Under the pieces are notes generated by a model. It did no database searches, was not told the origin of the DNA, and saw only the letters and a list, made by a program, of their open reading frames with translations. The position numbers and the translations under genes are program-made. Source: Escherichia phage vB_EcoM_MM02. From it: a DNA stretch of 64,000 bases. This document shows positions 12,790-31,988 of this stretch, piece after piece (the stretch's first letter is position 1; each line of letters starts with the position of its first letter). The stretch lies in the sequence record MK373784.1. One strand, 5' to 3'.

Positions 12790-13260
12790 TTAATCATGTT
12801 TCCACACCCCATCGCTATTTGACCAAAGTCGCTGATTATCTGATCCTCGCCAAAGCTTTTTAGTCGGAAGATTTTTCTCATACTTCCCATCAATAATAAC
12901 ATCAACATATTTAAGCATTTCTAGTTGTTTAATATCTTCAAACTTATATCCTGTCCACAACCAAATGCTTTTATTGGGATAAAGATTTTTTACTGTTTGA
13001 GCAATGCGATGAATAACATCTCGGTTATCAGGATAGAGAGGGTCTCCTCCGGTTATAGTTAATCCTTCTATATAATCATTATTCAAACATTCAATCAATT
13101 GTTCTAGTGTCTCTCCAGTGAATGGAGTACCATTTCTAGCATTCCATGTTGATTTATTATAACACCCTTCACATTTATGCAAACAACCTGTAACGAAAAG
13201 AACGACCCTGCATCCAGGGCCATTCACAAAATCGCAAGGATAAAATCTATCATAATTCAT
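12790..13260 (-). CDS. nrdG: Anaerobic ribonucleotide reductase activating protein NrdG (radical SAM)
   Basis: 156 aa; Cx3Cx2C motif CLHKCEGC; directly downstream of nrdD. Confidence 0.85.
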   Translation of the reverse strand: MNYDRFYPCDFVNGPGCRVVLFVTGCLHKCEGCYNKSTWNARNGTPFTGETLEQLIECLNNDYIEGLTITGGDPLYPDNRDVIHRIAQTVKNLYPNKSIWLWTGYKFEDIKQLEMLKYVDVIIDGKYEKNLPTKKLWRGSDNQRLWSNSDGVWKHD

Positions 13261-15074
13261 TGGTGTTTAACCCTATGCATGATTTCTTTATTTTTACCGA
13301 GATTAAATCCGCGCTCGTTCGGATTTCCCAAATAGCCGCATGTTCTTCTTATAGTGTTCATCTTTTTAGGATCAGTTTCTCCACAAACTGAACAAACAAA
13401 TCCGTTTTCAGTAGGAGTCATCTCATGGGTACTTCCACATGTAAAACATTTATCTACTGGCATATTAACACCAAAATAATCTAAATGTTGTGCAGCATAA
13501 TCCCAGACAGCCTCGAGTCCCTTTAAATTGTTTTTCATATCAGGAAGTTCAACATAAGAAATGTGACCACCTGTCGCAATGAAATGATATGGCGCTTCAC
13601 GAGAAATCTTTTCAAACGGAGTAATATTTTCTTCTACTGAAACATGGAAACTATTAGTGTACCAGCCTTTATCGGTAACATCCTTTACATTTCCATATTT
13701 TTCTGTATCGAGTTTACAGAAGCGATAACAAAGGTTTTCAGCAGGAGTAGAATACAAACTAAAAGCAAATCCAGTTCTTTCGGACCACTGTTTAAGATGA
13801 GCATTCATTTTAGTTAAAATTTCTTGCCCAATATCACGACCGACAAGAATATTCAATTCGTGAATACCAATGTATCCTAAAGACACTGAACTTCTACCGT
13901 TTTTAAATAACTCAATTATGTCGTCATCAGGTTTAAGACGAACCCCGAATGCACCTTCTTGGTAAAGAATAGGAGCAACAGTAGCTTTAACTCCTTTTAA
14001 GGAACTAATTCTACACATCAAAGCTTCAAAACATAAATCCATTCGTTCATTGAATAATTCAACAAATTTCTGTTCGTTAAATTGCGTTCCAATATAAGAA
14101 TCTAACGCGATGCGAGGAAGATTCAATGTTACAACACCAAGATTATTGCGACCATCAAGAATTTCATTACCGGTCGAATCTTTCCATACGCTCAAGAAAC
14201 TACGGCAGCCCATTGGAGAAACAGGAACTGAAGAACCGGTAATAGCTTTATTATTCTTAACCGAAATAATGTCAGGATACATTCTTTTGCTTGCACATTC
14301 TAACGCAAGTTGTTTAATATCATAGTTCGGATCATCTTTATAAAGATTAACACCTTCTTCAACAAACATAACAAGTTTAGGAAAAATAGGAGTTATTCCA
14401 TCACGACCAAGACCTTTAATGCGGTTTTTAAGAATTGCCTTCTGAATCATTCGTTCGGTCCAGTCAGTTCCCGTACCAAATGTAATTGTTACAAAAGGCG
14501 TTTGTCCGTTTGAACTAAAGAGAGTATTTACTTCATATTCATAAGCTTGGAATGCATCGTATACATCTTTTTCTGTTTTGGATTGAGCATAATTCAACGC
14601 ATCAGCGATTTGCCATTTTTCTGCATCCTCAATATGTTTAGCGTATGTGCGTTTAACATAAGGAGAAAGAACTTTATCTACATTCGCAAATGTAGTTCCG
14701 CCATACTGGTGTGAAGCAACTTGTGCGGTAATTTGTGCCATAATTGCAGTAGCAACGCCAATAGATTTAGGCGTTTCAATTTGAGCATTGCCTAATTTAA
14801 ATCCATTCTCAAGCATTCCTTTTAAATCTACTAAACAGCAATTAGTAAAAGGCAATGATATACTGTAATCTAAATCATGAAAATGAATTAATCCAACATT
14901 ATGGGCATTTACAATATGACTTGGAAGAATACGACAAGCGATATGTTTAGAAACAATACCGGCCATTAAATCTCTTTTTGTTGGAAAGACACGAGAATCT
15001 TTGTTGGCGTTTTCGGTATTTAATTCTTTATCTTTATTTGAAATAAAATTTAAAACATCTTTCTCTAAAGACAT
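13257..15074 (-). CDS. nrdD: Anaerobic ribonucleoside-triphosphate reductase NrdD
   Basis: 605 aa; C-terminal Zn-ribbon cysteines and glycyl-radical motif RRTCGYLG; uninterrupted. Confidence 0.9.
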   Translation of the reverse strand: MSLEKDVLNFISNKDKELNTENANKDSRVFPTKRDLMAGIVSKHIACRILPSHIVNAHNVGLIHFHDLDYSISLPFTNCCLVDLKGMLENGFKLGNAQIETPKSIGVATAIMAQITAQVASHQYGGTTFANVDKVLSPYVKRTYAKHIEDAEKWQIADALNYAQSKTEKDVYDAFQAYEYEVNTLFSSNGQTPFVTITFGTGTDWTERMIQKAILKNRIKGLGRDGITPIFPKLVMFVEEGVNLYKDDPNYDIKQLALECASKRMYPDIISVKNNKAITGSSVPVSPMGCRSFLSVWKDSTGNEILDGRNNLGVVTLNLPRIALDSYIGTQFNEQKFVELFNERMDLCFEALMCRISSLKGVKATVAPILYQEGAFGVRLKPDDDIIELFKNGRSSVSLGYIGIHELNILVGRDIGQEILTKMNAHLKQWSERTGFAFSLYSTPAENLCYRFCKLDTEKYGNVKDVTDKGWYTNSFHVSVEENITPFEKISREAPYHFIATGGHISYVELPDMKNNLKGLEAVWDYAAQHLDYFGVNMPVDKCFTCGSTHEMTPTENGFVCSVCGETDPKKMNTIRRTCGYLGNPNERGFNLGKNKEIMHRVKHQ

Positions 15075-15886
15075 AATTCTAATTTATCCTTTTGAAATTC
15101 TTCGTCTAAATATGGGTTCCAACCCATTTTAAACCTTTTGATGAAATTATCAATTCTAAATTTCGGTAAGTTTAAATCCGCAAAAATAGATGATTTACTT
15201 TTAAAATCTGGACCTAAATAATCATATAAAATTTCTGCGTATTTTAACCATAATATACAAGTACCGGATTTAATTGCGTTCGGAGTTTTCCAAGGTTTTA
15301 CACCATACATCGGATTTCCACTTCCTTTATGCCTGATAGAAGATGAAATTCCAATTTTAATTTTAGCTTCCTTTGTATGCGAAAATCCACGATGCGGATT
15401 TTCTTTCCAGTATTTTTTAGAAGCTTCTGATATTTTCTTTCTGGCTAAATTAGTATGATGCTTTCCATAAAATCCATTATTTTTGCCTTTATTACGATTT
15501 CTTTTAATCATGGTTATTGATTGCTTTTCTCTAGTTTCTTTAGAAGGAGAAATACCATATGTCGTAAATTTGCCATCAGCATATGCTAAATTAAAATACT
15601 CTTTATTCCATACATCTTTTTCTATATTCTTTTGAAATTCAGCTTCAATGCTAGTTATTTGTTCATCTCCGACTAATTGAAAATATAATATTTCAACTTT
15701 CGGCGTTTCTTTCAATAAGGCTTTTTGAAATTCGGAAGATGACGAAGACGAATAATAAAATTTACCATTTTTATCAATAATATTCGTTCCATCAAAAGTG
15801 CAATTGGTTTTACTTCCAATGTAATAATATGGTGGGGTTTTAGCATTAATTCTATTAATAAATGATAGTTTATATACTACATTCAT
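15065..15886 (-). CDS. Free-standing GIY-YIG homing endonuclease (Seg-like) with NUMOD3-type repeats
   Basis: N-terminal VVYKL...YYYIGSK pattern; two HTxxAKxKIS-like repeats; overlaps both the gene 49 stop and the nrdD start. Confidence 0.6.
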   Translation of the reverse strand: MNVVYKLSFINRINAKTPPYYYIGSKTNCTFDGTNIIDKNGKFYYSSSSSSEFQKALLKETPKVEILYFQLVGDEQITSIEAEFQKNIEKDVWNKEYFNLAYADGKFTTYGISPSKETREKQSITMIKRNRNKGKNNGFYGKHHTNLARKKISEASKKYWKENPHRGFSHTKEAKIKIGISSSIRHKGSGNPMYGVKPWKTPNAIKSGTCILWLKYAEILYDYLGPDFKSKSSIFADLNLPKFRIDNFIKRFKMGWNPYLDEEFQKDKLELCL

Positions 15887-16356
15887 TTTAAACTCTTTCT
15901 AAGCTGCTTTTTGAATGAAGCTATTAATTGTGTTTTAGTATCAGATTCATTATATTCAAATCCTCTTTGAAGCATCTCAGCCATCATTTCCTCTTTACCT
16001 AGTCTTGAGAACTCTTTAGTTTTGTCTGGAACAAAATTAGGATGGATATTATTATCAGAATAATCTTGTTTCAAATAAGCAAGAAGAGCTTCAAGCCATT
16101 CGAGGTAATCAACGTTTTTACCTTTAAGACCAGAACGGTTGAACTTATGCTTCATTTGGCCTTCTGCTGCGTTGCACAGAGAACAGAGTAACCCACGAAC
16201 TCTACCGGCTTTTGGCCCGTTTAATTCGTGGTCGTGGTCAAGATGGTTACCTTGAACATCAGGGTCTAATTCACGGTGGCAAATAGGACACTTACCATTC
16301 TGTGCATCATAAAATTTTTGTTTTTCTTCTTTATATTTTGCGCCTGATAATAACAT
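15883..16356 (-). CDS. 49: Endonuclease VII (Holliday-junction resolvase) gp49
   Basis: 157 aa; ...KFYDAQNGKCPICHRELDP...HLDHDHELNGPKAG... recognised as T4 gp49. Confidence 0.9.
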   Translation of the reverse strand: MLLSGAKYKEEKQKFYDAQNGKCPICHRELDPDVQGNHLDHDHELNGPKAGRVRGLLCSLCNAAEGQMKHKFNRSGLKGKNVDYLEWLEALLAYLKQDYSDNNIHPNFVPDKTKEFSRLGKEEMMAEMLQRGFEYNESDTKTQLIASFKKQLRKSLK

Positions 16357-30532: not shown

Positions 30533-30831
30533 TACTCTTTGAAAGGAATTAACTTTTTAACTGCTTTAGATACTTCGTCACGAACCTGATGGAAGTTCTT
30601 GAGCTGTTCAAGGCGTTGTTCGTAATACGCAATCTCATCTTCTTCAAGACAATCGTCAGCGTCTTCTTTCAGATATGCCTTGTACTCATTAAAGAGGGCC
30701 CATAGGCGGTTCTCAAAGTCATCAAGGCTTTGAATTTTCTTGTGCTTCAGAACAAGGCCAAAAGGATTGCTTTCAGTTATGCGTCTAGATGCTTCATAAT
30801 GAGTTCCAAAGCCTGATAGGATTTGAGCCAT
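30532..30831 (-). CDS. Hypothetical protein
   Basis: 99-aa ORF. Confidence 0.4.
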
Positions 30832-31265
30832 TAGTATTTTTCCTCAGGTCGAAATACTGCACGACATGCCCACATGCTGGCTTCTTTTAGATGTTGCTTA
30901 GCATACTTAAGAGCCTGCACTGCATCCATATCTTCTTTGGTTTGTTGCTCTGTTTCATTTTCTTTCAAGATATATGCTTCTTCAATCAGAGCATCAAACA
31001 ACAATCCAAGACGGACTTCTGCATCTTTAATAGCGTTCACTTTACCGATTTTATCATCGGTATGCGGCTTGTAGCCTTTGATGTCTTCAATCGACATAAG
31101 GAATTTCCTCATCTGTGGCAAGGTCATATTCGACCAATTGGATAGGCTCATTAATACCATATCCACGTACAGTGATATCAGTTGTCGGATAGTTTCCAGT
31201 AATATCACCCATTCTAAATGATTCAATGAATGATTGCTCGCCTGAGCAACTAAACCAGGCGGCAA
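30831..31265 (-). CDS. Hypothetical protein (start uncertain)
   Basis: 144-aa ORF partly overlapping 31087..31311; real start may be the internal MSIEDIKGY. Confidence 0.3.
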
Positions 31266-31311
31266 AACATTTTAAAACATCTTCAGACCCTTCTATAAAC
31301 AATTTAGCCAT
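31087..31311 (-). CDS. Hypothetical protein
   Basis: 74-aa ORF. Confidence 0.3.
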   Translation of the reverse strand: MAKLFIEGSEDVLKCFAAWFSCSGEQSFIESFRMGDITGNYPTTDITVRGYGINEPIQLVEYDLATDEEIPYVD

Positions 31312-31673
31312 TATAGACTCTCAGTAAAGGTGCGAGCGATAACGTCACGCTGCTGTTCCGGAGTTAGAGAGTTAAAGCGAACTGCATAACCGGATACACG
31401 GATGGTCAGCTGCGGATATTTTTCCGGATGCTTAACTGCATCTTCTAGAGTTTCACGACGCAGAACGTTAACGTTCAGATGTTGTCCACCTTCAATTTTA
31501 ACTTTAGGTTGATGTTCAATTTCAATTTCACGGGCATTCAAACCGTAGAAAATTTCTGGGTCTACAATAGCGTCTTCTTTAAAAGTCTTAGAGACAATAA
31601 TCCGGGCTTGAGTACCGTCTTCAAAATAAATAGTGCCTTTGTGTGTGCCTTCAAGAATTTGATATGCTTTCAT
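31311..31673 (-). CDS. GrcA/YfiD-like autonomous glycyl-radical cofactor
   Basis: 120 aa; C-terminal half ...[60 protein letters not shown] matches the glycyl-radical domain as I recall it for E. coli GrcA. Confidence 0.8.
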
Positions 31674-31679
31674 ATAACC

Positions 31680-31988
31680 TCAATTAGAAAATAAATTTAT
31701 CCAAGTTTTTTCTTTAATCAAAAATGGGTCGGAATTAAACGCCATTAAACTTTGAGTGATTAATCCCTTAAATGGCCCATCAATAAATTCCATTTTGAAA
31801 TGCGGAATACTAGTCATCAACCGTGCATTAGGAGCAGTACAAAGAACCTGCTGCCCTGCGAACGGACCTTTAGTCAAACGATATCGTTTAGGTTTAAAAT
31901 GGTAAATCTCGTAATTTTCTACAAGGGCCCTTTTATTGCATACTGGGCTGTTATAACAATATTCAAAAACTTCAATAGTGGTCATCAT
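31680..31988 (-). CDS. Hypothetical protein
   Basis: 102-aa ORF. Confidence 0.4.
   Translation of the reverse strand: MMTTIEVFEYCYNSPVCNKRALVENYEIYHFKPKRYRLTKGPFAGQQVLCTAPNARLMTSIPHFKMEFIDGPFKGLITQSLMAFNSDPFLIKEKTWINLFSN

Follow-up and report, generated by a model that had tools for sequence, protein, structure and literature searches.

The window, by which we mean the whole stretch of 64,000 nucleotides of Escherichia phage vB_EcoM_MM02 that was analysed, carries on its minus strand a complete gene for a small protein with a predicted C-terminal glycyl-radical domain (Table 1). The gene is closely packed with its neighbours. Its Shine–Dalgarno-like GAGG shares nucleotides with the stop codon (TGA) of the vs.7-like open reading frame (ORF) upstream, and at the other end its TAA runs into the start codon of the vs.5-like ORF (TAATG). 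This tight packing suggests that the gene is translationally coupled within an early/middle gene block. A promoter and terminator scan around the gene returned sites no commoner than in shuffled sequence. The sequence-only reading, an earlier description of this DNA made from its letters, had also placed NrdD and NrdG in the window, and Pfam matches locate both genes there. We also observed a 273-aa ORF (15065..15886, minus strand) that is flanked by nrdD and the gene for endonuclease VII (15883..16356); its NUMOD3 motif is homing-endonuclease-like.

Table 1. Positions in the window of the GrcA-type gene, its parts and two context genes.
Feature	Position	Strand	Details
Complete GrcA-type coding sequence	31311..31673	minus	ATG start, TAA stop; 120 aa + stop (363 nt)
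Codons 1–60, phage-type AT-rich N-terminal region	31494..31673	minus	GC 0.35, GC3 0.25
Codons 61–120 + stop, glycyl-radical domain, Escherichia-like DNA	31311..31493	minus	GC 0.47–0.48
Codon GGT, Gly95, predicted radical site in RVSGYAV	31389..31391	minus	alignment to YfiD G102 and PFL G734
Shine–Dalgarno-like GAGG, 4 nt upstream of ATG	31678..31681	minus	read from sequence
NrdD, phage class III ribonucleotide reductase (context)	13257..15074	minus	Pfam NRDD 3.6e-171
NrdG, radical-SAM activase of NrdD (context)	12790..13260	minus	Pfam Fer4_12 6e-49, Radical_SAM 3.5e-8

The gene order in T4 is regB, vs.3, vs.4, vs.5, vs.6, vs.7, vs.8, denV. The window order agrees, the ORFs adjoining the GrcA ORF match the corresponding PHROGs, and comparison with T4 and with Shigella phage SHSML-52-1 places the gene between vs.5 and vs.7 in the regB–denV interval. 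The DNA of the region is 97% identical to that of Mosigvirus genomes such as SHSML-52-1, in which the same 363-nt gene bears the RefSeq name 'autonomous glycyl radical cofactor GrcA'. The phage protein shares 113 of 120 residues with T4 Vs.6 (NP_049730, annotated under the same name), which is also 120 aa long and has the same neighbours (vs.5, vs.7, vs.8 and denV). Six of the seven substitutions lie in the N-terminal half, and the one in the domain is R73H of T4. We take Y06I to be the old database name of T4 ORF vs.6; the size and the status of vs.6 as the GrcA-annotated gene of the examined T4 stretch fit this identity. We identify the ORF as the ortholog of T4 vs.6 (Y06I) in Mosigvirus, and the gene itself is already known. 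As a gene it brings nothing new, being a close ortholog of T4 Y06I with GrcA already as its RefSeq name.

Regarding the spread of the family, 50,697 phage records were searched with tblastn, and 1,588 of them contain a homolog. Among the carriers are T4-like phages of Escherichia, Shigella, Klebsiella, Citrobacter, Enterobacter, Yersinia and Aeromonas, and also T5-like phages and jumbo Erwinia phages. The homologs of T5-like, RB49-like, Slopekvirus and jumbo Erwinia phages share with the window protein its small stand-alone architecture and a sequence motif. The homolog of the T5-like Salmonella phage Th1 has 138 aa with an extended N-terminus and lies among small hypothetical early genes. In an earlier comparison, vs.6 was listed among the conserved T4 ORFs of unknown function, with a Gly_radical match in six of six genomes, T4 and five T4-like phages (Nolan et al. 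2006, PMC1524935). Elsewhere in the same gene block, the ORF at the T4 vs.4 position (30831..31097, minus strand) matches the Pfam Acb2/Tad1 hairpin domain PF24729 at 1.4e-17, a family of anti-CBASS/Thoeris sponges. A 144-aa ORF call with a TTG start (to 31265) at this position is probably over-extended; the annotated SHSML-52-1 homolog has 267 nt.

We compared the phage protein with the known glycyl-radical families. It is a small (~14 kDa) stand-alone protein of 120 aa made up mainly of the C-terminal glycyl-radical domain. Residues 61–120 (EGGQHLNV...TFTESL) are identical to those of E. coli GrcA/YfiD at 60 of 60 positions, both in PDB entry 6owr_A and in the translation of K-12 grcA, and phmmer matches 6owr_A at an E value of 2e-42. 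The Pfam Gly_radical model (PF01228) is matched at 2e-18 by residues 59–101, which reach the C-terminal end of the model. By far the best NCBIfam model is TIGR04365 (spare_glycyl/GrcA), with 159.1 bits and an E value of 6e-47 over residues 18–120 of the protein and positions 23–126 of the model. The score stays below the curated equivalog cutoff of 170 bits because the N-terminus has diverged. PHROG 1209 is matched end to end (6.1e-63; residues 1–120 against positions 1–121 of a profile of 121).

The C-terminus of pyruvate formate-lyase (PFL; 1h16, 1cm5) also aligns with the phage protein, residues 57–120 corresponding to PFL 696–759 (phmmer E 3e-26). In this alignment, G95 in the motif RVSGY falls on the PFL radical glycine G734, and its counterpart in YfiD, at a constant offset of 7 counted from the C-terminus, is G102. 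The PflB C-terminal glycyl-radical domain (1h16 etc.) is equal to the piece that a spare part replaces. The phage protein differs from PflB in being a stand-alone domain that lacks the catalytic barrel and Cys418/Cys419, and its sequence follows GrcA rather than PflB. These matches support the assignment of the ORF as a predicted autonomous glycyl-radical cofactor of the GrcA/YfiD family (TIGR04365, IPR011140), its radical domain being identical to that of the host. The sequence-only reading had recognized a GrcA-like cofactor with a host-like C-terminal domain, and alignment with E. coli GrcA and the PFL C-terminus, which it had proposed as a check, bears this out. The peptide it quoted is present exactly, as is the RVSGY context of the radical glycine; the near-identity holds over 60 residues (61–120) rather than the ~65 it gave.

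Compared with E. coli GrcA/YfiD (P68066; NMR structure 6owr), the phage protein has the same 60 C-terminal residues and a homologous N-terminal region, but it is 7 residues shorter and its N-terminal part is only about 27–33% identical. The genomic settings also differ: the E. coli gene lies at the ung–grcA locus, whereas the phage gene lies in an early/middle block of a lytic phage. The sequence-only reading had called the N-terminal half unrelated, and here the comparison leads to another conclusion. Residues 1–60 alone find E. coli GrcA 1–67 by BLASTP with an E value of 8e-6 (13 of 40 residues identical). When a profile of 13 phage N-terminal halves was aligned to a profile of 67 distinct bacterial ones, hhalign gave a probability of 96.6% and an E value of 6e-10 over 59 of 60 columns. 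The N-terminal region is thus of the GrcA type, and fusion of the radical domain to an unrelated N-terminus is ruled out by these two results. They indicate that the protein is a full-length, diverged GrcA rather than a radical domain joined to foreign sequence. Between the window and T4, the N-terminal half has a dN of 0.047 and a dS of 0.35 (dN/dS ~0.13), values which indicate that it is under purifying selection within phages. In the profile alignment, conserved positions occur around Q-I, A-R, K, E-D, R-E and P-x-V. The N-terminus of YfiD is disordered and its role is unclear, although its removal lowers radical installation by the PFL activating enzyme, PFL-AE (PMC13450708). Diverged yet selected phage N-termini reveal the conserved positions of this little-understood region.

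The two halves of the gene have distinct relationships to E. coli at the DNA level. Nucleotide comparison with host grcA, likewise proposed in the sequence-only reading, gave 170 of 180 identical nucleotides (94.4%) for codons 61–120 against K-12, with a dS of 0.26 and a dN of 0. All ten differences are synonymous; seven run from GC to AT, one from T to A and two from AT to GC. The 39 alignable codons upstream have a dS of ~1.9, which is saturated, and a dN of 0.69 to E. coli. Of the positions at which phage and host share the residue, 50 of 60 in the C-terminal half also share the codon, versus 5 of 13 in the N-terminal half (Fisher p = 0.002). The change is abrupt: at gene nt 178–181 (window ~31493–31496), identity to E. 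coli jumps from ~14–17 to 28–30 matches per 30 nt, and the GC content climbs across the same nucleotides from 0.35 to 0.47, compared with 0.373 for the whole window.

The synonymous sites of this segment are free to change, since E. coli is separated there from Salmonella by a dS of 1.11 and from Citrobacter amalonaticus by one of 0.40. The 3′ half of the window gene has a dS of 0.26 to E. coli and 0.77–0.78 to the next genera; thus, Escherichia is the nearest genus among the 80 bacterial species sampled, with E. coli, rather than E. albertii or E. fergusonii, standing for Escherichia. The phage copy is also closer to Escherichia than is the grcA of every other genus in the sample. When the 64 kb were searched with megablast against 5,426 complete E. 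coli genomes, a single matching stretch (31303–31495) was found in every genome. The closest grcA allele in these genomes is 95.6% identical to the 3′ half of the window, and none of the 5,426 carries an identical donor allele. With the best allele at just 95.6%, the 3′ half is therefore not a fresh copy. The megablast match runs 8 nt beyond the stop codon (31303..31310), where the phage has TAATGGCTAAA and E. coli has TAAGGCTTAAG; these nucleotides may be a last trace of the 3′ flank of grcA and now form the start of the vs.5-like ORF. In the bacterial search, we also noted a full-length grcA on a large plasmid (Klebsiella sp. WOUb02 plasmid unnamed4, 275,668 bp), and an enterobacterial-type grcA with a product 91% identical to E. 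coli GrcA in a record labelled Vagococcus sp. WN89Y, which is probably contamination or mislabelling.

These comparisons indicate that the gene is a mosaic, with a host-derived 3′ half inside an older phage gene, and that the host-derived half was probably acquired by gene conversion. In the history that the sequences show, a full-length GrcA homolog entered T4-like phages long ago, and its 5′ half then diverged to saturation. The 3′ half, from gene nt ~181 to ~350, is Escherichia grcA DNA that came in afterwards through recombination or gene conversion; its drift since then has touched synonymous sites only, mostly from GC to AT.

A competing explanation is that purifying selection on an anciently acquired gene accounts for the near-identity, with no later exchange of host DNA. 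At the protein level this has force. The 60-residue domain is 56–60/60 identical in all 80 species of Enterobacterales and Pasteurellaceae retrieved, and therefore protein identity alone is not diagnostic of recent acquisition. Moreover, the Slopekvirus and Margaery genes are saturated in their DNA against every sampled bacterium (dS at least 1.1), yet their radical domains are 60/60 identical to host-type GrcA. However, constraint on the protein does not reach the synonymous sites, at which the 3′ half is far closer to E. coli (dS 0.26) than E. coli is to Salmonella (1.11). Nor does it account for the sharp cliff at nt 178–181, the jump in GC and GC3 at that point and the standing of this segment as the only host-like DNA in 64 kb. 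We therefore regard selection without exchange as very unlikely. The sequence-only reading had offered recent acquisition or strong constraint; both contribute. Constraint acts at the protein level, and acquisition applies to the 3′ half, which is Escherichia-derived (dS 0.26, against ~1.9 in the 5′ half), although its distance from the best E. coli allele speaks against a very recent event.

Regarding function, the protein was compared with its two characterized relatives. Two reviews (PMC8683613, PMC13450708, citing Wagner et al. 2001) describe E. coli YfiD and T4 Y06I as 'spare part' proteins of ~14 kDa. Either protein receives a glycyl radical from the PFL activating enzyme, and the activated form binds oxygen-cleaved PFL and restores its activity. 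According to these reviews, YfiD and Y06I are the only validated spare-part proteins (PMC8683613, PMC13450708). The function of the phage protein was transferred by orthology from T4 Y06I, to which it is 94% identical, and from E. coli YfiD. Our preferred reading, to which we assign a probability of about 0.88, is that the phage protein would be a 14-kDa autonomous cofactor that repairs oxygen-cleaved host PFL, and that the 3′ half of its gene would be Escherichia grcA DNA gained later. Repair of host PFL was one of the two roles suggested in the sequence-only reading, and for the T4 ortholog Y06I it has been demonstrated, according to a review (PMC8683613, citing Wagner et al. 2001).

In the proposed mechanism, an infected and fermenting E. 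coli or Shigella cell would meet oxygen, and the glycyl radical of PFL would react with O2. The PFL chain would be cut at G734 with loss of the C-terminal radical domain. G95 of the phage protein would receive a radical from PflA (PFL-AE), the radical-SAM activase of the host, and the phage C-terminal domain, which is residue-for-residue that of host GrcA, would dock into the gap that cleavage leaves in PFL. The conversion of pyruvate and CoA to acetyl-CoA and formate would thus be restored. The phage may benefit in two ways. First, repair of PFL would keep fermentative ATP production running. Second, it would uphold the supply of formate, which would serve as the reductant of the phage class III NrdD. 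Class III ribonucleotide reductases use formate as their reductant (PMC4493059), and formate is a product of PFL; therefore, PFL repair would allow the phage to keep making dNTPs anaerobically. Such an indirect link between PFL repair and NrdD via formate is plausible. As a check on co-occurrence for the formate link, the 9 kb around the GrcA homolog of Salmonella phage Th1 were searched for NrdD, and none was found. The searchable literature returned no phage-infection phenotype for GrcA or vs.6.

A direct link to NrdD was the other role suggested in the sequence-only reading, i.e. that the protein provides a spare glycyl-radical domain for the NrdD of the phage itself, possibly activated by NrdG. 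The nrdD and nrdG genes lie 16–19 kb away in the same window, the same oxygen cleavage hits all glycyl-radical enzymes, and other spare parts are regarded as conceivable though unknown (reviews PMC8683613, PMC13450708). With the Pfam hit as their sole ground, Nolan et al. (2006, PMC1524935) also guessed that vs.6 plays a part in nucleotide metabolism. A spare part for a class III ribonucleotide reductase, a hypothetical class with no known members, would be expected to match the C-terminal glycyl-radical region of NrdD, and no such match was found. The GrcA ORF and the NrdD of the window have no similarity by BLASTP (E = 9). The C-terminus of NrdD (...CFTCGS...CSVCGE...RRTCGYLGNPNERGF...) carries RRTCGYLG after a Cys4 motif (CxxC...CxxC), and only R..GY is in common with the GrcA ORF. 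The BLASTP result and the unlike C-terminus argue against NrdD as the structural target of the phage GrcA. The radical domain is instead identical to that of host GrcA and aligns to the PFL C-terminus as described above, and the T4 ortholog works on PFL with PFL-AE, as stated in a review (PMC8683613). The domain thus appears tailored to PFL rather than to NrdD, and we give the rescue of NrdD even less credence than selection without exchange.

Least credible is a recent wholesale, moron-like capture of host grcA whose N-terminus was swapped for unrelated phage sequence by fusion: the 3′ half is Escherichia-like in its DNA, and weak alignment with the 3′ flank of grcA continues for a few bases beyond the stop, but the homology of the N-terminal half to the GrcA N-terminus extends from end to end, the position and the N-terminal sequence are conserved in Tequatrovirus, Mosigvirus, Jiaodavirus, Slopekvirus and others, and the vs.6 ortholog with its Gly_radical match was present in all six T4-like genomes of the earlier comparison (Nolan et al. 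2006, PMC1524935). Since the gene is conserved across phage genera, the phage gene is old and the 3′ patch alone is young.

To follow the young patch within the old gene, as our preferred reading has it, we compared the two halves among phages. T4 Vs.6 is encoded by a mosaic gene too, with the identity cliff at nt 178–181, and its 3′ half is closer to E. coli grcA (176/180, dS 0.07) than that of the window (dS 0.26). Two alleles from IMG/VR are informative. L092, with a Mosigvirus-type 5′ half, and L094, with a T4-type 5′ half, have 13 synonymous differences in the 5′ half (dS 0.47) and a single one in the 3′ half (dS 0.02). The window differs from L092 by 1 nt in the 5′ half and by 6 nt in the 3′ half. 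These comparisons show that the 3′ half coalesces much more recently than the 5′ half. The proteins of L091 and L092 (IMG/VR; Escherichia phages Av-05 and phiE142, ~121-kb records) are identical to that of the window at 120 of 120 residues; their 3′ halves are nearer to E. coli grcA (175–176/180) than that of the window (170/180), and their 5′ halves match the window at 177–179 of 180 positions.

With the E. coli 3′ half as query, roughly 750 phage alleles match at the DNA level; 637 phage records are 95–98.9% identical to the K-12 grcA 3′ half and none is at 99%; the window lies at the low end. All phages with an E. coli-like 3′ half that were compared have the 5′ cliff in common, and almost all phages compared differ from E. 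coli at nt 354 and/or 357, the extreme 3′ end. In Tequatroviruses isolated on Yersinia and Hafnia, the 3′ half of vs.6 is 96–98% identical to K-12 grcA. Thus, the E. coli-like patch tracks the phage clade and not the isolation host. The records concerned are H102/H104 (Yersinia phage fPS-90), H107 (Hafnia phage IsaacDaniel), H117 and H128.

Across the nine sequences compared, the pattern would fit either repeated conversion from E. coli grcA or the swapping of one converted patch between co-infecting phages. The radical half may accordingly be kept matched to the host by repeated copying of grcA or by rapid spread of a converted patch between genera, besides selection. Besides L092 and L094 and the 637 records, the Jiaodavirus cliff and the residues at which Slopekvirus and Margaery differ, both described below, are consistent with it. 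We consider the odds of such mimicry by recombination to be even. A search for papers on recombination-maintained GrcA mimicry found none in the searchable literature, the key older papers being outside its reach, and nothing was found there on phage GrcA as an auxiliary metabolic gene, on gene conversion or on whether T4-like phages gained YfiD horizontally. What is mildly new is only the mosaic structure, now quantified, together with a hint that conversion from host to phage recurs. A clean, quantifiable patch of host DNA in an old phage gene is a possible test case for host-to-phage gene conversion, and the mosaic could also be used to test how auxiliary metabolic genes stay compatible with their host partners, here PFL and PflA.

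Other phage genera were compared in the same way. Klebsiella Jiaodaviruses have the same identity cliff, and their 3′ half is GC-rich (GC3 0.62 vs 0.22) and of the Klebsiella type (LLDAVEH...TEAL). Its nearest sampled donor is Pseudocitrobacter, with a dS of 0.45, among the 80 loci compared, to which K. pneumoniae grcA does not belong. The homologs of Slopekvirus, Margaery, RB49-like, T5-like and jumbo phages are at most 84% identical in their DNA to any sampled bacterial grcA. Unlike the window gene, those of the T5-like, RB49-like, Slopekvirus and jumbo Erwinia phages have saturated 3′ halves (dS at least 1.1 where computed, i.e. for Slopekvirus and Margaery) with no GC jump; thus, these phages carry no recent host patch. 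Lastly, the radical domains of two related phages, Klebsiella phage phiKp_5 (Slopekvirus) and Citrobacter phage Margaery, differ at exactly two residues, and these are the two by which GrcA of the Klebsiella type (L77, E81) is told from that of the E. coli type (E77, K81). The difference lies in a dense patch of 9 nucleotide changes at gene nt 228–243, with a full codon swap (CTG vs GAA), and this patch could be the result of micro-conversion or of selection for a match to the host.
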